From Candidatus Cloacimonadales bacterium (GTDB lineage Bacteria; Cloacimonadota; Cloacimonadia; Cloacimonadales; DAONDQ01): a stretch of 64,000 nt of DNA. Numbering within the stretch: the first letter of the stretch is position 1; every line of letters starts with the position of its first letter. Below, in pieces: positions 10,447 to 63,905 of the stretch. The stretch spans positions 3,712,001 to 3,776,000 of the forward strand of contig OY759316.1 of NCBI GenBank assembly GCA_963662275.1, given 5' to 3'. The notes below the pieces were generated by a model. It ran no database searches. It had not been told where the DNA came from and saw nothing but the letters and a program-made list of their open reading frames with translations. A program made the position numbers and the translations under genes.

Positions 10447-11424
10447 TTAAAACTTCACCAGTTTTTCGATTTCGTAAGCAATTCGTTCTGGTGGAATGAT
10501 GTAAAAATGTTCACCAAGCGGAAGAGGAACGATCGTATCGAACCCGCTTAATCGAACCGGTGGCGCTTCCAAGTGCAGAAATGCCTCTTCAATACAAATC
10601 GTCACTAATTCAGCTCCGGCACCAAAGCGTGAAGGGGCTTCTGAAACGATGAGGACACGTCCTGTTTTTTGAACCGATTGCCGAATGGTATCCCGATCAA
10701 TGGGATAAATCGTACGCAGATCGATGAGTTCAACGGAAATACTCTTATCCTTCAGCAAGACCATTGCCCGTTGTACTTCCCGAACCATGGCGCCATAGGC
10801 AATCACGGTGATGTGTTCACCTACATTCAGTACATTTGCTTTGCCGATGGGGATGGTGAACTTCTCTTCCGGTACTTCCTGTTTAATAGCTCTATATAAG
10901 CGTTTAGGCTCCATAAATATGATAGGGTCTTCAGACTCAATAGCGCTGATGAGCAGACCTTTGGCATCGTAAGGAGTGGAGGGAATCACGACCTGCAAGC
11001 CCGGGTATTGGGCAAAGAGAGCTTCAGGGCTTTCAGAATGGTGCTCCAAAGCATTGATGCCTCCGCCATAGGGAAAACGAATGACCATTGGAGCATGGAA
11101 CTTGCCTCTTGAACGGTTGCGTATCCTTGCCACATGTGAGAATATCTGGTTGAGTGCCGGATAGGAAAAGCCATCGAACTGCATCTCCACAATAGGTCTT
11201 AAACCGGCGATAGCCATACCTAAACCGCTACCTGCAATGGCTGCCTCTGCCAGGGGAGAATCGAAGACACGTGCTTCACCGTATTTCTTCTGGAGATTTT
11301 CAGTCACACGGAACACACCGCCTTCCACACCTACATCTTCACCAAAAAGGATGATCTTCGGATCTTCAGCAAGTTTGATATCAAGAGCATTATTGATTGC
11401 CTGTACTAGATTCATGACGCTCAT
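10447..11424 (-). CDS. pdhB: 2-oxoacid (pyruvate or branched-chain) dehydrogenase E1 beta
   Basis: GEDVGVEGGVFRVT, FDSPLAE, EHHSESPE. Confidence 0.92.
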   Translation of the reverse strand: MSVMNLVQAINNALDIKLAEDPKIILFGEDVGVEGGVFRVTENLQKKYGEARVFDSPLAEAAIAGSGLGMAIAGLRPIVEMQFDGFSYPALNQIFSHVARIRNRSRGKFHAPMVIRFPYGGGINALEHHSESPEALFAQYPGLQVVIPSTPYDAKGLLISAIESEDPIIFMEPKRLYRAIKQEVPEEKFTIPIGKANVLNVGEHITVIAYGAMVREVQRAMVLLKDKSISVELIDLRTIYPIDRDTIRQSVQKTGRVLIVSEAPSRFGAGAELVTICIEEAFLHLEAPPVRLSGFDTIVPLPLGEHFYIIPPERIAYEIEKLVKF

Positions 11425-12627: not shown

Positions 12628-13214
12628 CCACAAGAACCCCAATTATTAGCAACGTATTTACCCGCCATAGAATCTTATATTTCTGCACTATCAGTAGTAG
12701 GAAACACAGCATTTTTGTCAGATATTTCGTTAGGTTTATTGATTGTCGACATTTCTAACCCCCAAGAACCTCAGCTTATAGGTTCCTATATTCCTTCCGG
12801 ATATATCAAAGAGATTGAATCAAGAGATAATCTTCTATATATAATTGAAAACCGTGATTATTTGAAAGTGATCGATGTCTCCAATCCTAATGATCTACAA
12901 ATACTTGGTTCATATGAAACAACTGGCATTGCTCAATCGCTTGCTGTCATTGAAGAGACAGCTTATATCGTAAGCAGCAGTCCAGATTTACTATGTTTGG
13001 AAGTCCTGGATGTTTCTAATCCTGATTTGCCCATCATACTTTTTGATTATCCATTTCATTCTACAAGTCAGATAACAGGAGTATATATTAAAGATAATTA
13101 TCTATTTGTTATGGAACTGATTATGAAGGAAAAGCAATTGCTTCCGGAGTGTATTTTGCTAAGCTAAGCTCAGAAGGAATAAGTACAGGCAGAAAACTGC
13201 TGTTATTGAAATGA
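12628..13214 (+). pseudogene. Relic of an LVIVD-repeat secreted protein fused out of frame to a C-terminal sorting-domain tail
   Basis: LLIVDISNPQEPQ, LKVIDVSNP and LEVLDVSNP repeats with no start or signal peptide; from ~13113 another frame reads GTDYEGKAIASGVYFAKLSSEGISTGRKLLLLK*. Confidence 0.7.
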
Positions 13215-14776: not shown

Positions 14777-16637
14777 GAGACTGTTCATGAAGTTATTCAT
14801 AATATTCAATAAGTTAGAAAGTAGCAAGTTGAAAAAAGTGGTCGAAACGGTCATAATTTAACATACCTTCCAGAATTGACAGATAAGCTCTGCTAAGGAC
14901 ACCAAATCACAAGTTAAGCTTTTTGACTAAAATTGAAAAACACGCGATTATAAGTAATGTTTCGAAGCCGTTTCTGACTAAATGTGTAGTTAAAATCATA
15001 TAAAATAGTTCTTTACAAGTTTTTTGCTATAGCTTCAATGGCATTTGTTACCTGGTAACAAAAGGGAGGATATTATGACAAAAAAACACTCCAATTCAAG
15101 AAGCGGTAAGTGTTAGTCATGAAAGTAACCAATACCATGTAAGTATTAACGTACCATTTTCATTCACTTTGCCTGAGACAACATCAAACCACAAGTTCTT
15201 AATAGCGTTTCTACGCTTATTAGTAGGAATAGGCGGAGACAACCTCCTTACACTTCAGCAAATAGCTGATCTGTTTAACTACGCAGACCGCAGGAATGTA
15301 CATAATTTCTGGCAAGAGTTTGAGCAGCATGGTCATGATATCCTGGCATATTTAAGCCGGAAAGTTGACCTGCTGGAGTGTATTCCTCAGATCGAGAATT
15401 TTGTTATCAATAACCTGCTTTTACCTTTAAATGTCATGTATCAGGAGTTCATCAGCCATCATGATTTTAAAATGTCCTATACCACTTTCTGCAAATATGC
15501 TTCTCAGGTCAATTCTCTGTCTGTAGTTAAGCAAGCTCAGAAGCTTCTTCTGAAAAAGACAGTAGGCGGTGATGCTGTACATCTGCTGAAACTGCTTGCC
15601 GGTCAGCAGAATACACCTGTTATCTGTGACAGACTCCTGGAACAAATGAAGACTGCTAAAGGCAATACATCCCATAGAACCGCCGATGCAAAGCCGTTCC
15701 ATAGTCTGGAACGCAAGAACCTGTGTCTGCTGGTACATTACCTGGTTGGAAGCGGTATGAACTTCGAGACGATAGCTTTGCTGCTCAACACCTGTAAAGC
15801 TACAGTCTCAAATCTCTGGCATGAAATCGCTGACCTGCAGAGCCTGATTCTGAACTCAATCGGTAAGTGGAGCGGAAAGATCAGCATTGATGAGAAATAT
15901 GTGAAGATCAAAGGTATTCCGTACTATGTCATCAGTATTGTTGATTTTGTGACTCACATCCCTCTGTTTTGTGAGTTGTATCCTGACACAAAGAAAGAAT
16001 CATTCGAAGCATGTTTCAGAACCTTCAGACAGCTCTACAGGAAAGATCCAACCCTGATTGTCAGTGATGGCAGTAAATCGTTAGCAGTTGCAAGAAAAAC
16101 AGTGTTTCCAAAAGTCCATTACCAACTCTGTAAGTTCCATAAGATACGAAATCTCTTCAAAAGAATCAGTCAATGTCATCTCCCTGAAGACAGGGACAAG
16201 TTCTTTAAGAAGAGGATTATGAAAGCTTTCCGAAGAGAAACGGCGGGCGGAAGGAAAAAGGGTATCGCAAGCCTGACAGCTATTACTCCCCCAACCGCCG
16301 CCGAATACATCAAAAGCAATATCATTAGTGATTGGAGACACCTCAGCAAAGGTTTGACTTCCAATGTCTCTGAACGCTGGAACCGCAAAATCAAGAAGGT
16401 GACATCCGGTAGATTTGGACTAAAATCTGAAGAAACCACCCGCAACCTTGTGTTTTCGCTTTGGTTCAAAGAACTGGTCGATAAAGGTCAACCAATCATG
16501 CGTCAGGAATCACTTTTAGCAAGTTTAAATATCTCCCGCATATGTCAAGAAAATGTGGATTGGTCGCACTTAGACCACTTTTTCTCTGTCACTACCAATA
16601 AGGCTGCGTAAAATGGAGGTTAATTTTGAACAGTCTC
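14777..16637 (+). mobile_element. Insertion sequence, 1861 bp, DDE transposase (IS6/IS240-like catalytic motifs, family uncertain)
   Basis: Terminal inverted repeats GAGACTGTTCA / TGAACAGTCTC; 8-bp target duplication ATCTATGT at 14769-14776 and 16638-16645. Confidence 0.92.
15075..16611 (+). CDS. DDE transposase (RBS-linked ATG at 15075 is out of frame by 1 nt at an A7 run; long ORF annotated from 15169)
   Basis: ISIDEKYVKIKG, IVSDGSKSL, QLCKFHK and SNVSERWNRKIK motifs. Confidence 0.8.
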
Positions 16638-31621: not shown

Positions 31622-33267
31622 CAGGCATCCCCCCGTAATTTTCTTAACAATTAGTTTAGAAGCGTTTATAGTAACAGTCAAACGTTTTGCCGACTTTGAA
31701 AATCTGTTTAACATCACTGGTTGGTCAAAACTCCTAAACAGAAACTAGTGCAATTTGTAATTTACGGTAAACAGAAGAGTTGTGTTTTCACGGTAAAAGC
31801 AAAAAGCAGGTATTTTAATAAAACTTATAAAATTATGTGAGAAAATAAGATAACTATATAGAATGTCCATAATAAAACTGTACAAAAAAAGTGTCTCCGA
31901 TCTTTTGTTCAAGCACTAAACCAAACCTAAGAAGGAGACACCCATGATTAATAAGAAGCAAATCAAAACCAGAGAAACCTTGCAAGTAAAATTGTTACAA
32001 TTTCTGAATAATTTTAGAGAAACGCAATCTCTACCTGTGTATAAGTTCATACAGGATATCTGCTTAGGGATACTGAAAAGTAAATCTGTAATTATGCTCC
32101 AAATAGCGAAACAGCTAAATGAACCAATCACGGTTAAAAAGCTCTGCGAACGTTTCACCCGACATTTGAATAAGAAGCCCTTAGGAGATAAGCTGCAAGC
32201 GGAAATAATTAGGCATCAGTGCCAGGGTTTTGATGATGAGACAGGCATCATAGTTGATGAAAGTGATATCGTAAAAACCAAAGCCAAAAAGATGGAGGGA
32301 TTGCAGAAGGTGCGTGATGGCAGCACCGGCAGTCATGATCAGCAGGGCTATGCATTGCTGAATATAATTGCCTATCAGGCAGGCAGTACAGGCTATGAGA
32401 TAAAACCCATCAGTTCAGACCTGATAGCCCGAAACATGGAACTGGATAGCGTCTCTCAGATCATGGAAGACCGGCTAGTGGGGATTATTCTTGCAAGTGG
32501 TAACCGTGGAGTAACTATTTTCGACCGTGGCTTTGACAACCGAAATCTATTCAGCTTTCTGCATGAACATGGACTAAGCTATATCATCAGATCAACAGGT
32601 GAAAGAAGTCTTATCATGGATGGCTGCGAACAGAACTTCATGGCAGTGGCAAAGACAGTGAAACTCGATCATACATTCAATCTGCAAGAATCAGGACAAC
32701 AGATAAAATGTGGTTTAACGCGGGTGAAGCTGCGTTTGAATCCTTACCCTGTAAAATACCCTGATACTACAGATGCCTGGCTTATTGTTGCACAGTTCAG
32801 TCCCGATGCTAGTGGCAGACAGGGATATTTCTATTTCATCTGCGACTTTCCGACACAACCTTATCTGACGGAAAATGCTATCATGGAGAAGGTTTTGCGG
32901 ATGTATCGCATACGCTGGAAAATCGAAGAGGTCCATCGCCATATCAAGCAGGAATATGGTTGGGAAAAGATACAACTGAAATCATATACCCGTCTGAAAA
33001 ACATGAACCAGCTGCTTCTGCTAGCTATGTGCTACCTGTATTCTCTGAAAAAGTATGCTGGCGTATTTTTAGATGCCTTCCCAAATCTTATGAAATACTC
33101 AAATAAACAGTGGAAGCAGATATATGACTTTGTGTATTATCGTCTGTCAATGCTGATAGAGATGTGTTTTGCCACCGTGACAAGGTACAGGCTCAATCCT
33201 TTTGCAGGAAAATGGCTGGATAATCAGCAGCTAAAAATACCTGGTTTGAAAAACGGGGGGATGTGAG
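31622..33267 (+). mobile_element. IS4-family insertion sequence, 1646 bp
   Basis: Imperfect inverted repeats CAGGCATCCCCCCGT / ACGGGGGGATGTGAG; 13-bp target duplication TTTTACATAATTT at 31609-31621 and 33268-33280. Confidence 0.9.
31944..33266 (+). CDS. IS4-family DDE transposase
   Basis: IVDESDIVK, IFDRGFD, YRIRWKIEEVHRHIK (YREK-type motif); stop lies inside the right inverted repeat. Confidence 0.9.
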   Translation: MINKKQIKTRETLQVKLLQFLNNFRETQSLPVYKFIQDICLGILKSKSVIMLQIAKQLNEPITVKKLCERFTRHLNKKPLGDKLQAEIIRHQCQGFDDETGIIVDESDIVKTKAKKMEGLQKVRDGSTGSHDQQGYALLNIIAYQAGSTGYEIKPISSDLIARNMELDSVSQIMEDRLVGIILASGNRGVTIFDRGFDNRNLFSFLHEHGLSYIIRSTGERSLIMDGCEQNFMAVAKTVKLDHTFNLQESGQQIKCGLTRVKLRLNPYPVKYPDTTDAWLIVAQFSPDASGRQGYFYFICDFPTQPYLTENAIMEKVLRMYRIRWKIEEVHRHIKQEYGWEKIQLKSYTRLKNMNQLLLLAMCYLYSLKKYAGVFLDAFPNLMKYSNKQWKQIYDFVYYRLSMLIEMCFATVTRYRLNPFAGKWLDNQQLKIPGLKNGGM

Positions 33268-36760: not shown

Positions 36761-36795
36761 GAAAAACCCCGGTACATACCGGGGTTTTTCTTTTC
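36761..36795 (+). terminator. Rho-independent terminator
   Basis: GAAAAACCCCGGTAcaTACCGGGGTTTTTC followed by a T-run, 38 bp after the stop. Confidence 0.85.
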
Positions 36796-41638: not shown

Positions 41639-41669
41639 ATAAAAAGGCAGTCGTTAGACTGCCTTTTTT
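41639..41669. terminator. Bidirectional rho-independent terminator
   Basis: AAAAAGGCAGTC-gtta-GACTGCCTTTTTT between convergent genes. Confidence 0.85.
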
Positions 41670-47586: not shown

Positions 47587-47908
47587 AAGCCTTTTTCTCC
47601 CTCGACATTAAAATTAGGACTTCCCAAAAGTGTCAATTAAATTGTCCTGTACAATTAGCAAGCGTGAAATGTTAGAAATTTGCAGTTAGAAATATAGGTG
47701 GTGATATAGCATCATTAATCTTGTCTTATAAAATAGTTTTTCTTTTCTTTTTTCGATGTTTTGAACATGGTGTCTATTATTCCAGGATCAGCACCAACTA
47801 AAGTCGGCGTTTCAGAATTCTATTCAGAATATTAAAAAATAAAATAATACTTGACGCACATAAATTTAGTTCTCCCTATTGCCACATACTCTAAAGGAGG
47901 TCTTCACT

Positions 47909-49147
47909 ATGCGACGATATTTATTTATTCTCATTTTTCTCTTCATCACTGTAGCAGCTATGGCAATTGATTCATTTTCCAAACCTGTTGATATGCATAC
48001 TTTAAATGGACCTATGATGAATAATCCAGGACGTGGATGGAGGTTAAGTCAAGAACTTCAGGAAAACTTTAATGATGAAACATGGAGTTATGATAACAAA
48101 AGCGAATGCTATTATAATTCAGCTCATCCAACGGCAATAGACAGTACAGTGACGTTCAACTACTATTCAGGTACATGGAATCATTATGAAACTGATATCT
48201 ATGTTTATGATCCTACATTTGAATATTTAAATGCATTAATTATTGATAATAATTTTACCAATGCAATCTACGAATACAATGATCAGCATTATTTGACAGA
48301 AAAACTGGTGTGGGCATATAGAAATCATTATCAATATATCAATAATAGATTGTCTGCCATCTATTCATGGCAATGGAGTCCTAGTAATCCTTCGTATCAC
48401 AAAGAAATACCTGATTTTGATACATCTGGTAGAATTATAAGTTCGACTAATCAGGTATCCCCTGATTCTACAAATTGGGTTAATTTTGAACATGTTGATA
48501 GAAGCTTTCATAGTCATGACACAACTACCGGTGACATCTTCAATACTAATTTTGCACATCAATATCCGCTTGGGGGCTTTTTCAACTCTAACCCTTACGG
48601 AATGGTTTCGCAAGAAATCTATAAAAGTTGGTCTAATGGTGAATGGATAAATGACAGAAGATACGATTATTCCTATGATGCTTCTGATAAACGAACATTC
48701 TATATTAAAATGATATGGAATGATACTTCATGGGAAAATGAACAACAGATAATATCAAGCTATGATATCAACGGCAATATTTCAGTAAGACTTGGTCTAT
48801 GGTGGAATCCTGACTCTTTATCATGGGAAAATAGTTACAGGGTAACATATACTTGGGAACAAACAACAGCCAATGATGATCAAACTACACCCGTTGTTAA
48901 GGGACTATCCTTATCAGCCTATCCCAATCCTTTCCAATCCCATGTGGATATCCAAGTGAATACCAAATCAAATCAACCAATCCAAATTGAAGTATTCAAC
49001 ATCAAAGGACAATCAGTATATCATGCAAAGGCAATGCCAAACACACAAATCACTATGGATGGAAAGTCGCTTAGTTCAGGAATCTATTTCGTGAAGGCAA
49101 AGCAGGGAAATGAGACCAGTGTACGGAAGGTGCTGAAGCTGAAATGA
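47909..49147 (+). CDS. Secreted Tyr/Trp-rich repeat protein with a T9SS-type-A-like C-terminal domain
   Basis: Start ATG 47909 after GGAGG; W.N..R..Y.YD repeats; AYPNPF...SSGIYFVK...KVLKLK. Confidence 0.75.
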   Translation: MRRYLFILIFLFITVAAMAIDSFSKPVDMHTLNGPMMNNPGRGWRLSQELQENFNDETWSYDNKSECYYNSAHPTAIDSTVTFNYYSGTWNHYETDIYVYDPTFEYLNALIIDNNFTNAIYEYNDQHYLTEKLVWAYRNHYQYINNRLSAIYSWQWSPSNPSYHKEIPDFDTSGRIISSTNQVSPDSTNWVNFEHVDRSFHSHDTTTGDIFNTNFAHQYPLGGFFNSNPYGMVSQEIYKSWSNGEWINDRRYDYSYDASDKRTFYIKMIWNDTSWENEQQIISSYDINGNISVRLGLWWNPDSLSWENSYRVTYTWEQTTANDDQTTPVVKGLSLSAYPNPFQSHVDIQVNTKSNQPIQIEVFNIKGQSVYHAKAMPNTQITMDGKSLSSGIYFVKAKQGNETSVRKVLKLK

Positions 49148-49200
49148 CACGTTTTACCCTGATTGATAGATAACCCAAGATCACCAGCAAGGAGGTTTGT

Positions 49201-49653
49201 ATGTTCAGAGTTATATTCCTCGTTTTATTAATTATCATTCCGTTTCAGTTGTATTGTGATGTCATGTATGTCCATCTCACAAATGGAACTACTGCGGAGT
49301 TCCAGGTTCAGGATATTCAGCAGATCAATTTCAGTAATGTCTCCAATAATGATTGGGTTGCGTTCCTGCCTAAAGTTCCCATTAAGTTTTTAACCAATTA
49401 TCCTAATCCGTTTAATCCCTCAACAATCATCAAGTTTGAATTGTCAGAACCGTATCAGACAGAGGTTTCGATCTACAATATCAGAGGTCAACTGGTGAAG
49501 GTTCTGGCAAAAGACTATATGACTAAAGGTATTCACGAGTTGACCTGGAACGGCTTGAATGAAACCGGTAATACCTGTGCCTCGGGTCCTTATATTTATA
49601 AGGTCAAGTGCAATGACCAAATCAAAGTCAATAAAATGCTGATGTTAAAATAG
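49201..49653 (+). CDS. Small secreted protein: short N-terminal beta module plus FlgD/T9SS-like C-terminal domain
   Basis: Signal peptide, MYVHLTNGTTAEFQVQDIQQINFS, then NYPNPFNP...KMLMLK. Confidence 0.8.
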   Translation: MFRVIFLVLLIIIPFQLYCDVMYVHLTNGTTAEFQVQDIQQINFSNVSNNDWVAFLPKVPIKFLTNYPNPFNPSTIIKFELSEPYQTEVSIYNIRGQLVKVLAKDYMTKGIHELTWNGLNETGNTCASGPYIYKVKCNDQIKVNKMLMLK

Positions 49654-49662
49654 GAGCATACG

Positions 49663-50553
49663 ATGTACAAAATATTATTGATTAGTTGCCTTATCCTTTT
49701 AACTTCTTTTCTTTTTGCGCAGACTCAGATGAATGTGCATACTACAAACGGTATGACCACTTTCAATCTGAATGAAATCACGGATATCACTTTCAGTCAG
49801 GGAACAACTCCTGACCAGATGGTACTTGTACAGGGCGGTACTTTCAATAATGGCACATCTGATGTAACGGTATCATCCTTTTACATAGATAAGTATGAAC
49901 TTACACAGTCTGCCTATCAGACAGTGATGGGAGTGAATCCATCCTATTTCTCTGGTGTAACAAATGGTCCGGTGGAATATGTATCCTGGTTTGATGCGAT
50001 AGAGTACTGCAACAAACGCAGTATAAATGAAGGTCTGACACCCTGCTACAGTTACAGCACTTATGGGACGAATCCCGCGACCTGGCCAACGGGCTGGAAC
50101 ACAGACTACCAGAATCATACTAATGTTTTCTGCAGTTGGACAGCGAGTGGCTATCGCCTGCCCACGGAAGCGGAATGGGAATTTGCCGCGCGTGGAGGTA
50201 ATTCCACACATGGTTATACCTATAGCGGTAGTAATACGCTAGGTGATGTCGCTTGGTACTCTTCGAACTCCGGCAGTACAACTCATGCAGTTGGAACCAA
50301 GACAGCCAATGAACTGGGTTTATTTGATATGTCAGGCAACGTCTGGGAGTGGAATTGGGACATCTATGGCTCTTACCCGGTTAGTGCACAGACCAACCCG
50401 CATGGTGCTTTCAGCGGGAGTTTCCGTGTGTACCGTGGCGGTTGCTGGGACTACAATGCCACCTTCTGCACCGTTTCCAATCGGTACAGCGACTTCTATG
50501 CGACTATCAGAGCCGTCAACATAGGCTTTCGCTTGTGTAGGACTTCCCCTTGA
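49663..50553 (+). CDS. Secreted FGE-sulfatase (SUMF1)/C-type-lectin-fold protein, candidate DGR target
   Basis: MVLVQGGTF, FYIDKYELTQ, YRLPTEAEWEFAARGG, NELGLFDMSGNVWEW, RVYRGGCW...IGFRL. Confidence 0.88.
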   Translation: MYKILLISCLILLTSFLFAQTQMNVHTTNGMTTFNLNEITDITFSQGTTPDQMVLVQGGTFNNGTSDVTVSSFYIDKYELTQSAYQTVMGVNPSYFSGVTNGPVEYVSWFDAIEYCNKRSINEGLTPCYSYSTYGTNPATWPTGWNTDYQNHTNVFCSWTASGYRLPTEAEWEFAARGGNSTHGYTYSGSNTLGDVAWYSSNSGSTTHAVGTKTANELGLFDMSGNVWEWNWDIYGSYPVSAQTNPHGAFSGSFRVYRGGCWDYNATFCTVSNRYSDFYATIRAVNIGFRLCRTSP

Positions 50554-50749
50554 TTTTTGTATTTTATCCTTTTGCAAAATGCTCGTAACATAGTTTGGCA
50601 AACTGTTGTATTCGACAATGGTATTGTCGAATTCTGCCAAGATCGTGTATTGTCAATCTACTCTAATAATAGGTTTTTCTTGACGCAATTTCTATATTAA
50701 AAATATTATATTATTAAAACTAAATAATTAAATGATTATATGAGGACTT

Positions 50750-51555
50750 ATGGAAATTAAAGAAGTACATAGTACGTCATAGTTTTTGACAAACATTGAA
50801 ACGTTTTCTTAAGAATCATCTAATCCACTATGGTTCAAGGAATAGGTAATGTTCAAAAATATGAATTGATTCCTTCTTTGTATCGAAGAAAAGATATCTC
50901 AGATATTGATGAGTTTATTAAAATTGATATGGGAATTACAGAAGATTTAGAGTTGAAGGGCGTTGCATATAATAGCGAAATATCAACTAATACATATTTT
51001 CATAATTTGTTCATTCTACAACATTATGGGTGCCCAACAAGGTTGTTAGATTGGACAGAGAATCCATTTGTTGCTCTTTTTTTTACCTTAGAATCAGCAT
51101 TAAGATATAATGTAGCTCCAAAAGAAAATGCTTGTGTATGGGTTTTGGATCCTATTAATTGGAATAACATGGTTCATTCAGGATATTCAACAAACCCTCC
51201 TAACAAAATCCTATCCCACAAAGACGATCAAGTGAAAGCATATGATATTAATGAATTGAGGAAATCTGACCGAAAATATCCTATTGCGATTTCGGGTACT
51301 CATAATAGTAGAAGAATTGTTGCCCAAAAAGGGACATTTGTTATTTTTGGGAAAAATACTAAAAGTATGGACAAAGTTCTATTAGATTTCCCCCATGCTA
51401 ACACATCAATATTAAGAAAACTGGTACTTCCCAAAAAATTATTATCCGAAATTTTCAGAGATTTGCAAAGATACGGAATAACTGATTCTGTTTTATTCCC
51501 AGAGCTTGACGGACTTTGTAAAGAGTTGAGTCGAAAATATGGATATAGGAGTTAG
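50750..51555 (+). pseudogene. FRG-domain protein, 5' end disrupted
   Basis: ATG 50750, in-frame TAG (50780) and TAA (50810), frameshift at ~50837 within the WF(R)G motif; the rest has LIPSLYR, LQHYGCPTRLLDWT, RIVAQKGTF, LFPELDG. Confidence 0.75.
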
Positions 51556-51556
51556 T

Positions 51557-52630
51557 ATGTTTGAAGTTACATCATTTGATGCAAAAAGCCTAAGTTGGTG
51601 GTATTATAACCGAGATAAAATTGATATGGAACCAATTTATCAACGTAAAGGCAATATTTGGAATGATCACTCACGTGCTTTTTTAATTGACTCAATCCTT
51701 AATAGCTTTGATATTCCGAAATTGTATATTGCTGATTTTGTTCTACAGAATTCTTCATTAAATTATAGGAATAATACTATGCTATTATTGATGATAAACA
51801 AAGACTAGATGCTATTTTTGGCTTTTTTGAAGATAAATATTCTCTTTCTGATGATTTTGTTTATTATGATAATCCCAGTATTTGTCTGGGAAATATGTTT
51901 TATTCAGATTTAAAAAAAACACTATGACATTGCTTTAAAGTTTGAGAATTTTAATTTATCAGTTATGCGAGTGAGAACTGATAATGAAAGTATGATTAAT
52001 GAGTTATTTATTAGATTAAATCGAGGAAAGGCATTAAGTGGGGCTGAGATAAGAAGTGCTATGAGTGGGGTAATTCCACTATTTATTAAGGAAATATCAT
52101 CTACTGTTTTTTTTCAACAAAAAATCAGATTTAATGTGCAAAGAAAACAAGACGAGAATACAGCTGCAAAATTATTGTTGATAGAATTTAGAGGTAGTTT
52201 TGTAGATACAAAGAAAAGAATGCTTGATTTGTTTGTGGAAGAGGCAATTACTTCAGAAAGTGAGAATTTTGAAAGTGCAAAAGAAAGAGTGATTGCTAAT
52301 CTTTTACTGATGGAACAGCAATTTTCTGATAGAGATATGTTACTCAGATCAGCAAGTTTAATTCCTATTTTCTATTGGTTTTTTCGTAACCATCATAGTA
52401 ATCAAGTGAATTATCATGACTTTATACAATGGTTTGTAAATACAAACAATGTTATGAAAAAATCAAATTATTCTTATGAAGCATTTGTAGCAAGGGAGAA
52501 GGTAGAATCTTTTTATAACTTTAATTTGAGTATCAAAAATGCTAATGATCGTGATAGCTTACAGCAATGCTATTTTATTCTAGAATCTCTTTATGATTAC
52601 TGGTATCAAGTGGTAAATGATTTTATATAG
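51557..52630 (+). pseudogene. DUF262 (GmrSD-like ParB/Srx) domain protein, frameshifted
   Basis: PIYQR, DSILNSFDIP, IIDDKQRL (degenerate DGxQR), LFIRLN; frameshifts at ~51775 and in the A-run at ~51915. Confidence 0.72.
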
Positions 52631-52870
52631 TATTTGTGATTAGGTTTGTTATTTAATTATTACTATCTTAATCAAGCTATCTTAGAAAAGTGATTCAAAT
52701 TAGACCAAAATTGCTATCTAGATTTTGTTATTAAAAAGAAGTTCTTTAAGATTAACACCGATAATAAAAATGCTATTTCAAACACACCTTAAATTACGAA
52801 GTCGATAAAACAAGCGGATAATCTTGATAAGAGACTTGCAGATTTCATCCTTGAACTCCTTGTCTTATCC

Positions 52871-53995
52871 TTAGAAGAGTTCTACATATTTGTTAAATAT
52901 ATACAATTTATTACGCTGATTACCAGTAATTTCCTTTAGAATTCCAAGCTTTTCGAAATCATTTATTAACTTATATGAAGATACTTTGGTTAAACCGGTT
53001 GCTTGTGAAACATCTTCAGCTTTTACAACTGGATTAGAAAATAGATAAGTGAGTAGTTTATTTCCCTTATGCATTTTTCTTCCCAGCTTGGGTAGAAGTT
53101 GAGTCTCGCAATCTTGCTTAATAGAGATAATCGTCCGAAGACCCTGGATTGCATTGTCGCATGTTTGTTCAATGCCGGTTAATACGAATCTGTACCAGTT
53201 ATTCAAATCATTTTCAGTACGCACCTTCATCAGGTTTTGATAATACAAATCACGATTCATTTCAAAATATTCAGATAGATAAAGAACTGGTTTTCTTAAG
53301 ATACTAGTAGAAACAAAATATAAGGTAAATAACGATCTTCCGATTCTGCCATTCCCATCCAGAAAAGGATGTATTGTCTCAAATTGATAGTGAGCAAGGG
53401 CAATACGTAAAATAGGTGGTAAGCCAGTTTTGTCATTATGCAGGAAATTCTCCAGATCTCCCATCAGTTTATTAACTTCTTCCCAAACAGGCGGTATGAA
53501 ATATGCTGATGCAATACTTGCTCCTCCTATCCAGTTCTGGCTTCTACGAAATTCACAGGGAGATTTATGTTCTCCTCTCACTCCTTGCAGTAAGATAGAA
53601 TGCATTTCTTTGAGTAACCTGGATGAGATCGGAATCCTGTTTAATTGCTCGACGCCGTAATTCATTGCCTCAACATAATTGTTTACTTCTTTCCAGTCAT
53701 TTCTTTTCTCGGGATTAATATCCTCTTCATTCATCAATGCTTCATCAATATTAGTTCGCGTACCTTCGATTCTACTTGATAAAGTAGCTTCCTTGAATAT
53801 ATGCATTTTAATAAATAGATCAATATCTGGAACCAAGTCAGAGTAAGCGCTTAATTCGCCAAGTTTACGACTTGCTTTTTCATATAAGGATAGTAGATCA
53901 GTTTGATCGAAATGATATGGTCTATTGATTAGAGAAGGCTGAAATGCCTTATAAGTGTTATTTTGAATATATTTTCCTGCTTCGAAGTCCTTCAT
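52871..53995 (-). CDS. Fic family protein (class II-like, N-terminal inhibitory motif, C-terminal HTH)
   Basis: HPFLDGNGRIGR; EATLSSRIEG. Confidence 0.92.
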   Translation of the reverse strand: MKDFEAGKYIQNNTYKAFQPSLINRPYHFDQTDLLSLYEKASRKLGELSAYSDLVPDIDLFIKMHIFKEATLSSRIEGTRTNIDEALMNEEDINPEKRNDWKEVNNYVEAMNYGVEQLNRIPISSRLLKEMHSILLQGVRGEHKSPCEFRRSQNWIGGASIASAYFIPPVWEEVNKLMGDLENFLHNDKTGLPPILRIALAHYQFETIHPFLDGNGRIGRSLFTLYFVSTSILRKPVLYLSEYFEMNRDLYYQNLMKVRTENDLNNWYRFVLTGIEQTCDNAIQGLRTIISIKQDCETQLLPKLGRKMHKGNKLLTYLFSNPVVKAEDVSQATGLTKVSSYKLINDFEKLGILKEITGNQRNKLYIFNKYVELF

Positions 53996-54056
53996 GATAA
54001 CCTCCTTAGGAATAACTCAAAATTGATAATTATTACTTTATTGTATTTGGCAAGCT

Positions 54057-54171
54057 TTAATTAAGTTTCAGCCTCTAAACTTAACTAAGGATTTTGTTAA
54101 TTAATTTTCAGCCTCTAAACTTAACTAATGAATCTGTTAATTAAGTTTCAGCCTCTAAACTTAACTAAGGA
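54057..54171. repeat. 40-bp tandem repeat x3 upstream of the Fic gene
   Basis: TTAATTAAGTTTCAGCCTCTAAACTTAACTAA at 54057, 54097 and 54137. Confidence 0.85.
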
Positions 54172-54201
54172 ACATGTGAAATACGAAGTTCGAAAGCAGA
54201 T

Positions 54202-54277
54202 AGCAGGAACGGCGTCCTACTCTACAACCGTCTAAAGGCGGAGCTACGAAGACAGCAAGATTGGAATCTTATGCCAC
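54202..54277. repeat. REP-like cluster
   Basis: AGCAGGAACGGCGTCCTACTCTAC (identical at 57122), CAACCGTCTAAAGGCGGAGCTAC (reverse complement of the 2027 unit), AAGATTGGAATCTTATGCCAC. Confidence 0.8.
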
Positions 54278-54305
54278 AACAGAAGATTCCTGAAGTAATC
54301 TTTAC

Positions 54306-55391
54306 TCAATTCACACAAGTCCAAACAAACTTCCGAATGATGTTATTGAATTTGCTCCATTGATTGGTTGCATGTTGATAATGTCCAGCAACAATACCAG
54401 GAGCAATTCCGATTTGCTTAGCAAGAATGTTAACATCATTCTCTGTTTTCATAAGAGGAATTTGGTCTCTGTATTCCGTGGGAATCAGCATATCTGAGGC
54501 AAAATCATCCGCTTCAACTTCTCTGGGGTCGTTACGGTCATCCTGATCGTTGATGAATACATCACGTTTATCATGCAGCATGACATGTCCGGCTTCATGA
54601 AAGAAAGAGAACCAGAACCTGTCTTCTTTTTTACCCCGTAAATTCAGCATGATAAGGATTTTATCCTTGGAGAGCCATTCAGTAGCACCGCTCCAGGGAA
54701 CATTCTTCATTTCAGGTACTAAGGCAAGAGCTACACCTGATTCGGCACAAAGCTTTGTCAGTGTTGGACAAAATTCTTTCGGTTCTTGTAACGTTAATGA
54801 TCGGATTTTATGTAGATTCTTGAGAAAAGTCGCTCCGTTGTAGGGCTTGCAGTCCATATTTTTTGCCTGTAATTCACCCATACGTATCCATGTGGCAGCA
54901 GCATAGGGATTCGTGCTGAAGCAGGAGGAACGGCGGGTGGCAATTTGGGGTGCTGCCCAATAGTCATGCCATGACTTGACACTGCCAACTCCGAAGAATG
55001 AAAGAACACTCCTGAATTGTTCCATAGAATCTTTATATGGTTTGATGAATCCTCTTTTTATCAGTTCATTCACAGGAATATGAGAAAGCCATTCAAGATC
55101 ACTGGCTAATTGTTCCTTCTCTTCAATTCTCAATAGTTGTGCTCTATATAGAGCTTCGTAATTATTCCAAAACCGGGCAGGTACCCCTGTTACCAACTCC
55201 AATTTATCAGCCGTTTCATAGGTTACCGGTTGTTCCCCTTTAAAAATACGTATAAGAGACTGTTCAGTGATACCCAACCTGATCGCAAACTCTTTTTGAC
55301 TCATGGAAAGATCTTCCATGGTTTCTTTTATTGTACGCCCTGGGGCAACGGCATAATCAGGCATTTGTGCCTCTTTTCTTTTTGCACACAT
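54306..55391 (-). CDS. higA: HigA-family antitoxin, XRE-HTH fused to an ImmA/IrrE (DUF955) metallopeptidase domain
   Basis: AVAPGRTIKE...MSQKEFAIRLG...ARFWNN; FWFSFFHEAGH. Confidence 0.85.
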   Translation of the reverse strand: MCAKRKEAQMPDYAVAPGRTIKETMEDLSMSQKEFAIRLGITEQSLIRIFKGEQPVTYETADKLELVTGVPARFWNNYEALYRAQLLRIEEKEQLASDLEWLSHIPVNELIKRGFIKPYKDSMEQFRSVLSFFGVGSVKSWHDYWAAPQIATRRSSCFSTNPYAAATWIRMGELQAKNMDCKPYNGATFLKNLHKIRSLTLQEPKEFCPTLTKLCAESGVALALVPEMKNVPWSGATEWLSKDKILIMLNLRGKKEDRFWFSFFHEAGHVMLHDKRDVFINDQDDRNDPREVEADDFASDMLIPTEYRDQIPLMKTENDVNILAKQIGIAPGIVAGHYQHATNQWSKFNNIIRKFVWTCVN

Positions 55392-55400
55392 TCTAGCCTC

Positions 55401-55736
55401 CTAATGTGTATCTGTAATTTCTATGATTTCAATTTCTGTTACAGCAGAAAGATCAATACCTGTATCAGCAAACCGAGGAACAGGATCGTTAGTAACTTGA
55501 AAGATTAAACGTAAAGGGTGAGTCAAATCGACAGAGAACTGTTCCTTCCGATTTCCTATAAGCATATGACATCTCGGTCTTGGAAAGAGGAATAGAACTG
55601 CTAAAGTTTCAGCTGAAAGTAAATCAAACATGCGTTGTTCAAGCTTCTCTGCACAAAAACTTCCTAACTGCTTTACCATTTCTTTTTTGTCAGTACATAA
55701 TTTCTCAAGCTTCTTTGAATGATAAGTTACTTGCAT
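55401..55736 (-). CDS. higB: HigB/RelE-like toxin (killer protein)
   Basis: KKLEKLC...RCHMLIGNRKEQFSVDLTHPLRLIF...EITDTH; upstream of higA. Confidence 0.82.
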   Translation of the reverse strand: MQVTYHSKKLEKLCTDKKEMVKQLGSFCAEKLEQRMFDLLSAETLAVLFLFPRPRCHMLIGNRKEQFSVDLTHPLRLIFQVTNDPVPRFADTGIDLSAVTEIEIIEITDTH

Positions 55737-55751
55737 ATGCCATCCTTGTCA

Positions 55752-55790
55752 AGTATAATATATTAACATAGCATGTTAATAAGTTATACT
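55752..55790. promoter_or_regulatory. Palindromic operator upstream of higBA
   Basis: AGTATAA-ta-TATTAACAT-agc-ATGTTAATA-ag-TTATACT. Confidence 0.55.
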
Positions 55791-55904
55791 GTATTATCTC
55801 CACAATTATATACGATATCCGATACAAATCTTCTTGCCTTTTTGACTGCTAAATGATTAGCTAAGATGATTATAAGCAGAATGGATTGTCAATGGAAATC
55901 GTGG

Positions 55905-56032
55905 GAAGTTCGAAGTGCGAATGCAGAGAGTAAGAACGGAGTCTTACTCAACGCAAAGTCTCTATTTCCATAAGATCGGAATCTTATGCCACGAAAGTTA
56001 TAGGTTCAGTAGGATCGGAATCCTACTCCACC
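55905..56032. repeat. REP-like cluster with heptamers, overlapping the 3' end of the DUF488 gene
   Basis: GAAGTTCGAAGTGCGAA, GAGTAAGAACGGAGTCTTACTC, CATAAGATCGGAATCTTATGCCAC, AGTAGGATCGGAATCCTACTCCAC. Confidence 0.7.
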
Positions 56033-56882
56033 CAAGATCTTTCGTTCTTTTCCTTATCTCTTCAGCCAAGACATGGCGGTGGCAATTCTTAAAATCTGCT
56101 TCAAAACAGGTGAGTGAAATGCGTTTGTTAGAGTTCAGTATTTCCATAATCCTTCCGATGTTCCCATTGTGTTGTGGTAATAAGTTTTCTGAATAGAATG
56201 TAAACAAAGCAGTCTTATTTTGAAATTCTTTCCGATAGCTGGTAGGAATTCCCATTTCAGGGATGTGCAGGTATTCGATTTCGAGCATCTTACAATGCTT
56301 AGCGATGTTCGAGCCTATGAATTCCTTTTTCATACTATAGCTGCTTGCCCTGACATCGACCAGTACCTGGATGTTGTTTTCTATTAGCTGAGATAAGTAC
56401 TTATCTATACTTTTTCCTTCGTAACCGATGGTAAATAAGGTCAGTTCATTTTGTTTCGGTTTGCAACTAGTGACGGCATCCATTTCCTGGGCAGTCAGGA
56501 GTTCCTGCGCTTTGATGCTGTTGATCGCATAACGGGGATAGTGGATAGAGACATATTTCATTAAGTCGTTGGTATTATTGTGTCCGAATTGAACGAGCAT
56601 ATCATCCAACTCGGCTTTTCTCTTTGCACTGATCTTTATAGGAACAGAGCTTTTAATCGTATATTTTTCATCTGCAAAAGCAAGAAAGTCATTTTTGCAT
56701 AATTGATCCAGATCATGCTGAAGAGTAATTGAATAAGGTCCATAACGGTATGGGAAAAAGTCAAAGGATGGGTCATCAGATTCGAGAGTGGATAAGAACA
56801 TCAGCTTTTGCAGCTTAGTTTTGCCTGATTGCTGAAGTTTATCAACCATGTAAAGCAGTTCTTTTTGACGATTAAATAGCAC
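55998..56882 (-). CDS. DUF488-domain protein with an N-terminal wHTH-like region
   Basis: KTKLQKLMFL...PYRYGPYS; LFTIGYEG, LVDVR, YLHIPEMG, CFE...CHR. Confidence 0.78.
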   Translation of the reverse strand: MLFNRQKELLYMVDKLQQSGKTKLQKLMFLSTLESDDPSFDFFPYRYGPYSITLQHDLDQLCKNDFLAFADEKYTIKSSVPIKISAKRKAELDDMLVQFGHNNTNDLMKYVSIHYPRYAINSIKAQELLTAQEMDAVTSCKPKQNELTLFTIGYEGKSIDKYLSQLIENNIQVLVDVRASSYSMKKEFIGSNIAKHCKMLEIEYLHIPEMGIPTSYRKEFQNKTALFTFYSENLLPQHNGNIGRIMEILNSNKRISLTCFEADFKNCHRHVLAEEIRKRTKDLGWSRIPILLNL

Positions 56883-57090
56883 TACACCCTCTCATGCATA
56901 AGATGCATTTAGAAATAGATATACCGCATAGGTTGTCAATAAAAAATCATCGTTAGTGATTAATATGTCGATGCTATCGACATGTTCTTTTAACGTGTCG
57001 ATTTTGACGATGAAAATCGACACGTATTGATTCTTAATTAAGTTTTGATAGGTAACTTGTGGCTGAAGAGAAGACGGAAAGTCTCAGGTT

Positions 57091-59073: not shown

Positions 59074-59148
59074 GCCGATGTAGCTCAACGGTAGAGCTAT
59101 TGATTTGTAATCAATAGGTTGGGGGTTCGATTCCCTTCATCGGCTCCA
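59074..59148 (+). tRNA. tRNA-Thr(TGT)
   Basis: Cloverleaf, anticodon loop TT-TGT-AA, GTTCGA T-arm, CCA end. Confidence 0.95.
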
Positions 59149-59156
59149 TATTCAGT

Positions 59157-59242
59157 GGTGGGGTTCCCGAGTGGTCAAAGGGAACAGACTGTAAATCTGT
59201 CGGCGGACGCCTTCGGAGGTTCAAATCCTCCCCCCACCACCA
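59157..59242 (+). tRNA. tRNA-Tyr(GTA)
   Basis: CT-GTA-AA anticodon loop, long variable arm, CCA end. Confidence 0.95.
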
Positions 59243-59273
59243 TCCTTTATTTTAATGACGTCAGAATGCATGT

Positions 59274-59350
59274 GCGGGAATAGCTCAGTTGGCTAGAGCA
59301 TCAGCCTTCCAAGCTGAGGGTCGCGGGTTCGAATCCCGTTTCCCGCTCCA
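59274..59350 (+). tRNA. tRNA-Gly(TCC)
   Basis: CT-TCC-AA anticodon loop, CCA end. Confidence 0.95.
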
Positions 59351-59360
59351 TTTTATAACC

Positions 59361-59436
59361 GCTCATGTAGCTCAGTCGGTAGAGCACCTCCTTGGTAAGG
59401 AGGAGGTCACCGGTTCAAATCCGGTCATGAGCTCCA
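59361..59436 (+). tRNA. tRNA-Thr(GGT)
   Basis: TT-GGT-AA anticodon loop, CCA end. Confidence 0.95.
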
Positions 59437-63864: not shown

Positions 63865-63905
63865 GGAAGTGGGTATAGTCTACCCACTTCCATTTTGTAT
63901 TTTTA
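63865..63905 (+). terminator. Terminator/attenuator between rplL and rpoB
   Basis: GGAAGTGGGTA-tagtc-TACCCACTTCC followed by a T-rich run. Confidence 0.75.

Follow-up and report, generated by a model that had tools for sequence, protein, structure and literature searches.

A variable repeat in a TvpA-like gene of a Cloacimonadota bacterium, most likely an orphaned or non-adjacent target of a diversity-generating retroelement

The closest described counterpart of the gene studied here is TvpA of Treponema denticola, which has an FGE-type C-type-lectin fold with a C-terminal variable repeat (VR) and is reported to be without formylglycine-generating enzyme (FGE) activity (PMC5758913). The T. 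denticola diversity-generating retroelement (DGR) has the HRDC-containing architecture C in Wu et al. 2018 (PMC5758913) and many paralogous targets, some of which are non-adjacent; in the account given there, seven non-adjacent targets are credited to it. The same survey reports 73 non-adjacent targets for 45 of 372 DGRs, and FGE/TvpA-type proteins as the largest class of DGR targets (19% of the 372 elements). DGR reverse transcriptases (RTs) of Cloacimonadota have already been noted as well (PMC11661182). In Mtd of Bordetella phage BPP-1 the 3' end of the gene carries the VR, template adenines direct the variation and an inverted repeat is found downstream (PMC3240598). The DGR targets of phages, as described by Guo et al. 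2011 (PMC3240598), carry a 7-10-bp GC-rich stem with a 4-nt GRNA loop, at a distance of 4-34 bp to the VR. TvpA-type DGR variable proteins, multi-target DGRs and non-adjacent targets are, hence, already known, and the gene at 49663-50553 appears to be one more example, from Cloacimonadota. It shares with TvpA the predicted fold and the position of the VR, and with Mtd the VR at the 3' end, a downstream inverted repeat and, apparently, the pattern of variation, but unlike TvpA it belongs to a Cloacimonadota host and no RT or template repeat (TR) is tied to it.

The following features were found in the window, i.e. the whole stretch of 64,000 nucleotides (64 kb) that was analysed:

49663..50553, forward strand: TvpA-like secreted-protein gene, from the ORF list, PF03781 and a match to 2y3c
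50413..50540, forward strand: variable repeat (VR), from homology to template repeats of related DGR cassettes, adenine mismatches and codon bias
50544..50588, forward strand: conserved T-rich stretch 3' of the VR (TTCCCCTTGATTTTTGTATTTTATCCTTTTGC...), common to relatives' targets and about 7 nt shorter here
50595..50640, no strand: AT-rich extended hairpin, from DNA folding (inner stem 50610-50619 / 50623-50632, outer stem 50595-50600 / 50635-50640)

The product of 49663-50553 has 296 aa and comprises an N-terminal hydrophobic, signal-peptide-like segment, an FGE-sulfatase/C-type-lectin domain and a variable C-terminus. Comparison with Pfam gave FGE-sulfatase (PF03781, E 1.4e-44, residues 51-292). 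Searched against all solved structures, the protein had its top match in 2y3c, T. denticola variable protein 1 (TvpA), with an E-value of 3.8e-42 over residues 64-292, and the alignment continues through the VR and the C-terminal tail, whereas the solved catalytic formylglycine-generating enzymes matched at 4e-11 to 7e-8 only. The comparison with TvpA that had been drawn in an earlier note on this DNA is, therefore, sound, 2y3c being by far the best solved relative. From these two matches, the VR is predicted to lie at the C-terminus of a C-type-lectin (FGE-type) fold. The 90% cluster of the protein has the protein itself as sole member. The gene is the last of three genes for secreted proteins that stand head to tail at 47879-50553. 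The FGE protein (49663-49800) and the 150-aa protein encoded upstream (49201-49330) have an N-terminal motif, VH.TNG.T..F....I..I.FS, in common after the signal segment, and the upstream protein bears a T9SS C-terminal sorting domain.

The VR makes up the last ~45 codons of the gene, with the variable codons at 50422-50523. Starting at 50425, codons 1-17 of the 33 that run from RV.RGG up to the Ile preceding GFR read CGT GTG TAC CGT GGC GGT TGC TGG GAC TAC AAT GCC ACC TTC TGC ACC GTT, and codons 18-33, ending at 50523, read TCC AAT CGG TAC AGC GAC TTC TAT GCG ACT ATC AGA GCC GTC AAC ATA. NNY codons account for 27 and NNC codons for 19 of these 33. NNC codons make up 62/254 in the rest of the gene and 18.0% in 20 other ORFs of the window (10,141 codons), against which 19/33 has a binomial p of 4e-7; the highest count in any stretch of 33 codons in the 20 ORFs was 15, and none attained 19. 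The C-ending bias seen at first reading is, hence, real, and the sequence is as it had been described. The VR contains neither a stop codon nor a frameshift. A DGR variable repeat is recognisable by its codon pattern alone.

A second copy of 50300-50660 was not found in the window by blastn (word size 7, relaxed scoring, both strands), the longest chance match being 49 nt with 67% identity. None of the 54 ORFs of at least 100 aa in the window matched RVT_1, an RT profile run over six-frame ORFs of at least 50 aa had no match, and no similarity to Avd, HRDC or the TR spacer was seen in the 64 kb. When the TR and spacer of a related locus (L001, see below) were used as blastn query for a template in the window, the VR alone was matched. 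The statement that the segment has no second copy, and no RT or template repeat nearby, holds for the whole window on these negative results. Rfam, applied to 49000-52000 of the window, returned a chance-level Yfr10 only (E 0.85). The 4,378,784-bp contig that holds the window was covered by protein searches with the L001 RT. It was absent from the best 120 of 7,477 matches of 188-601 aa, which reach down to 45% identity, and from the best 120 of 227 matches of 30-187 aa; an RT of another clade, below about 45% identity, would fall outside these, and the contig given for a match may be that of the cluster representative only. The same search method listed ten FGE paralogs from this contig among the best 120 of 7,964 matches.

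One scan of genome contigs yielded 78 loci of relatives, the best of which is 77% identical, and 82 target genes from them were scored for their flanks; the relatives named in the protein search were Cloacimonadota. Comparison of the 78 loci with themselves revealed three (L001, L022 and L025) with TR/VR pairs in which the mismatches are concentrated on one base. Mismatches between each VR and its own TR were at TR adenines in 19/19 (L001), 22/27 (L022) and 22/24 (L025) cases, and 0, 5 and 0 of 84 non-adenine positions, respectively, were mismatched. The three templates do not differ from each other at any of 41 adenines. In all three loci, genes for HRDC, bAvd and RVT_1 proteins adjoin the TR/VR pair, so that these cassettes, like the T. 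denticola DGR (PMC5758913), combine HRDC, Avd and RT. The order of features in L001 is:

10604-10728: VR, in the target gene
HRDC gene (E 6.6e-16)
bAvd gene (E 3e-16)
RT gene (RVT_1, E 1.2e-26)
12636-12760: template repeat, overlapping the RT stop
12764-12901: RT-14-like stretch

L001 is a complete diversity-generating retroelement. Rfam RT-14 (RF02921) was matched over its full length (model 1-144) directly 3' of the TR in L001 as well as in L022 (4545-4689) and L025 (3546-3687), with scores of 40-44.5 bits in the three intact cassettes, slightly below the gathering score of 48.1. In this clade, the RT-14-like stretch probably represents the spacer portion of the DGR RNA. Other loci hold remnants. 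L040 (3399-4729) has kept HRDC and Avd, but its RT is cut at 190 aa and there is no template; in L008 (10871-11555) HRDC residues 1-88 are joined to RT residues 289-343, and the template is retained; seven loci (L076, L029, L024, L023, L036, L038 and L017) hold HRDC or spacer scraps only. Judged from these gene remains, decay of cassettes beside FGE targets is common in the relatives.

The window aligns at 50413-50540 with the VRs and TRs of L001, L022 and L025, and blastn with the L001 TR as query matched 50413-50533 with 76% identity. Against each of the three TRs the window VR has mismatches at 19 of the 41 adenines, and elsewhere at 11/84 (L001), 13/84 (L022) and 8/84 (L025) positions. The excess at adenines is significant (Fisher p 1e-5 to 4e-4), with the templates being those of other species. 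As controls, genuine VRs (L001, L022 and L025) were compared with another species' template, which gave 19-22/41 adenine and 7-10/84 other mismatches; the pattern of the window VR is like that of true VRs set against a foreign-species template. Ranked by non-adenine mismatches to the nearest foreign template, it stands 33rd of 83 VRs, which range from 0/84 to 43/83. Adenine substitution in the template can yield 22 of the 23 residues at variable codons, the lone exception being an effect of the alignment end, and the third positions of the variable codons agree with the templates in all but 1-2 of ~19. The window VR is one codon longer than the TRs of the three loci, and we infer that its own template exceeded these by one AAC-type codon. 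The target proteins of L001, L022 and L025 are 77%, 71% and 70% identical to the 296-aa protein over residues 50-296, and 66-75% over the C-terminal 130 residues. The T-rich motif 3' of the stop codon is common to these three loci and the window. What follows differs: in the three loci HRDC, bAvd, RT, TR and RT-14-like RNA come directly downstream, whereas in the window 275 nt of unrelated sequence separate the target gene from an FRG-domain gene.

From these comparisons of sequence, we hold with high confidence that the tail of 49663-50553 was written by adenine-mutagenic retrohoming, from a template of the L001/L022/L025 family. The claim of a DGR-type variable repeat in an FGE/C-type-lectin (TvpA-like) gene is, hence, upheld by the mismatch distribution together with the 2y3c match. 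Alternatively, the tail could have arisen by ordinary divergence of paralogs under diversifying selection, with the NNC bias reflecting a preference for Tyr, Asp, Asn, Ser and Phe in a lectin site. This origin finds some support in the paralogs P0010 and P0030, which carry E, M and Q residues unreachable by adenine mutagenesis, and in the lack of a template in the window and of an RT from this genome among the matches listed, but it was already disfavoured and we consider it extremely improbable, since the mismatches to bona fide templates of relatives concentrate at adenines and since the scaffold codons, synonymous positions included, match the GC-rich templates despite 18% NNC in other ORFs of the window. 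Moreover, the VR is more conserved towards the templates than the adjoining coding sequence is towards its orthologues: identity to the templates is 87-90% at non-adenine VR positions, but no more than 67-70% to those loci in the 300 nt upstream. When the genome of a VR is out of reach, it can be confirmed with templates of related species.

The T-rich motif 3' of the stop codon is present in 42 of the 82 genes of relatives. Blastn of 50541-50900 against the 78 loci gave, in many loci, matches of 27-35 nt with 83-97% identity, beyond which no similarity was seen; the homology of the window flank stops at ~50573-50588. A GC-rich hairpin, GCAGGGGGA-N4-TCCCCCTGC, with a 9-bp stem and a 4-nt loop, lies no more than 140 nt 3' of the stop codon in 24 of the 82 genes; among these 24 are the targets of the three intact cassettes and, for the cross-contig co-target pairs described below, both genes of a pair; the second gene of L018, with only 84 nt of flank, could not be scored for it. 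Together, the relatives' T-rich motif and GC hairpin are a candidate target-recognition module. The 3' flank of the relatives (0-140 nt past the target stop; e.g. L036, 10753-10870) is conserved across species, while the genes are only 60-75% identical. Unlike L001, L022 and L025, the window is without the GC hairpin, which is absent within 400 nt. This absence is weak evidence of target incompetence: VRs with template-like scaffold in L009, L016, L023, L037 and L039 are without a GC hairpin within 140 nt, so that loss of the hairpin need not disable a target.

A different hairpin, ATTCGACAAT-ggt-ATTGTCGAAT, is located at 50610-50632 of the window, exactly as first noted, with a perfect 10-bp stem (3 G-C pairs of 10) and a 3-nt GGT loop; a 6-bp outer stem extends it. 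It starts 57 nt past the stop codon and 69 nt past the end of the TR homology. The fold has a z-score of -3.2, and no equally good fold arose in 200 shuffles; the window contains 5 distinct perfect hairpins with a stem of at least 10 bp, compared with 0.47 expected from 30 first-order Markov simulations. As an intrinsic terminator it was rejected: a scan of 49000-52000 flagged nothing at 50595-50640, and there is no T-run after the stem (TCTGCCAAGATCG). Nor is it a repeated element, with no other copy in the window.

That this hairpin serves as the DGR target-recognition hairpin of the window VR, as had been suggested, might be argued from the fact that hairpins follow VRs both here and in the relatives and from the report that the Bordetella phage element depends more on the structure of the stem than on its sequence (PMC3240598). 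The suggestion did not survive the comparison and is very unlikely to be correct. The GC-rich hairpin with a 4-nt loop near the VR 3' end known from BPP-1 Mtd (PMC3240598) is not what was found: the stem here is AT-rich, the loop has 3 nt and the distance from the TR homology is large, and according to the same study function in the phage is much reduced by replacing four G-C pairs with A-T or by altering the size of the loop. Furthermore, it has no homology to the relatives' GC hairpin, blastn of 50541-50900 found nothing similar to 50595-50640 in the 78 loci, and a promoter-like site (50680-50709) that would serve the next gene, the one with the FRG domain, follows it at a distance of only ~50 nt. 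The AT-rich hairpin would, rather, stand outside the DGR machinery: it is located where other sequence has taken the place of the conserved flank, bordering a low-GC island.

At least ten FGE paralogs, including the query, are encoded on the 4,378,784-bp contig, which represents this genome (among the best 120 of 7,964 matches). Aligned together with four orthologue-like proteins, they are well conserved up to RV.RGG and then hypervariable until GFR.CR. The VRs of this genome fall into two length classes, the 296-aa protein, P0011 and P0044 being one residue longer than the rest. Among the paralogs, 14-19 of 19 A-free scaffold codons are unchanged and 17-23 of 23 residues at A-containing codons are reachable from the template. 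Since there are two length classes, scaffold changes and unreachable residues, not all of the paralogs are kept in step, i.e. homogenised, by one template.

In the relatives, VRs on different contigs of one assembly have the signature of co-targets: of 42 columns with a template adenine 18-25 differ, compared with no more than 0-3 of the 90 remaining columns, and the 300 nt upstream are only 57-81% identical. The non-adenine differences amounted to 1/90 for L002/L064, 0-2/90 for the two L006 genes compared with L040 and 3/90 for L005/L011; a tandem pair on one contig, in L018, has the same signature (1/90). Neither L006 nor L002 has an RT in its 10-kb flanks. By these sequence signatures, non-adjacent targets are real in the relatives. 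The only RT seen in the L006/L040 assembly is truncated, yet its VRs look freshly written; a fresh-looking VR is, therefore, no proof of a live RT.

Taken together, the VR is most likely a DGR target that is either orphaned or non-adjacent. Of the two, we lean slightly towards the tail of 49663-50553 being an orphaned, or at least currently unserved, target. By descent, the 3' end of the gene is a DGR VR, being homologous to the VRs beside intact Cloacimonadota cassettes: a template repeat would have been reverse-transcribed with adenine mutagenesis, and the product would have retrohomed into the part of the gene that encodes the C-terminal lectin surface of a secreted TvpA-like binding protein. 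In a weaker step of the argument, this genome would later have lost or inactivated the cognate cassette, as occurred repeatedly in relatives. The specificity of such an orphaned tail would be frozen, its sequence changing as that of any coding region does, and the variable tail may indeed be a frozen relic. Since agreement with the template family persists at third-codon positions and in scaffold codons, the last rewriting would be recent compared with the divergence of the species; the near absence of synonymous decay fits recent or continuing homing equally well. In favour of an orphaned tail are the missing RT, HRDC, Avd and TR spacer in the 64 kb, together with the lack of an RT match on the 4,378,784-bp contig among the matches listed, the cassette decay in relatives (L040, L008 and the seven loci with scraps), the paralogs in two length classes with scaffold changes and unreachable residues, and the loss, past ~30-45 nt, of the relatives' flank, GC hairpin included.

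The non-adjacent targets of relatives, and the seven reached by the Treponema element of the same HRDC architecture (PMC5758913), are a point against an orphaned tail. A template repeat and RT may possibly lie elsewhere in this genome, outside the window, and such a DGR, with a template one codon longer, could rewrite the VR in trans, along with P0011 and P0044. The cross-contig co-targets and the matching Treponema architecture speak for this, as do a VR without stop, frameshift or inaccessible residue and with almost no third-position decay, and the agreement of P0001 and P0011 in scaffold residues and length class. Nevertheless, no protein of the 4,378,784-bp contig is among the matches listed in the two RT searches, and the 3' flank kept after the relatives' co-targets, GC hairpin included, is missing past ~50588, so that we regard continued rewriting in trans as unlikely, albeit plausible enough to be taken seriously. 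If the genome holds a live element, the locus would help to define the minimal needs of a remote target. Distinctly less probable is a large trans-acting DGR network in the 4.38-Mb genome, with at least ten TvpA-like targets and an RT outside the known Cloacimonadota clade, that still rewrites this copy despite its loss of the family's GC hairpin and its unrelated AT-rich one. The two VR length classes would demand at least two templates in such a network and, if it existed, target recognition in this lineage would need no conserved flank. Returning to the orphaned tail as the favoured reading, many such tails in this lineage adjoin decayed cassettes or none, so that a clean VR signature is no sign of ongoing diversification.

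Downstream of the gene, the window has a low GC content at 50830-56882 (32.5-39%). This stretch opens with the FRG-domain gene and further contains a Fic gene, a gene with HTH and ImmA/IrrE (M78) domains and a DUF488 gene, besides two ORFs without Pfam match (51539-51808 and 51965-52630); an integrase was not seen in it. It looks like an inserted accessory island, with four tRNA genes (59074-59436) and tuf following ~2 kb past its end. Two transposase genes, at 15169-16611 and 31944-33266, represent the Mutator/MULE and DDE_Tnp_1 types. The other perfect hairpins of the window with a stem of at least 10 bp are found at 36762-36789, 41641-41668, 56996-57022 and 63865-63891; three of these four are located just past gene ends and have A and T runs on either side, as in bidirectional terminators.
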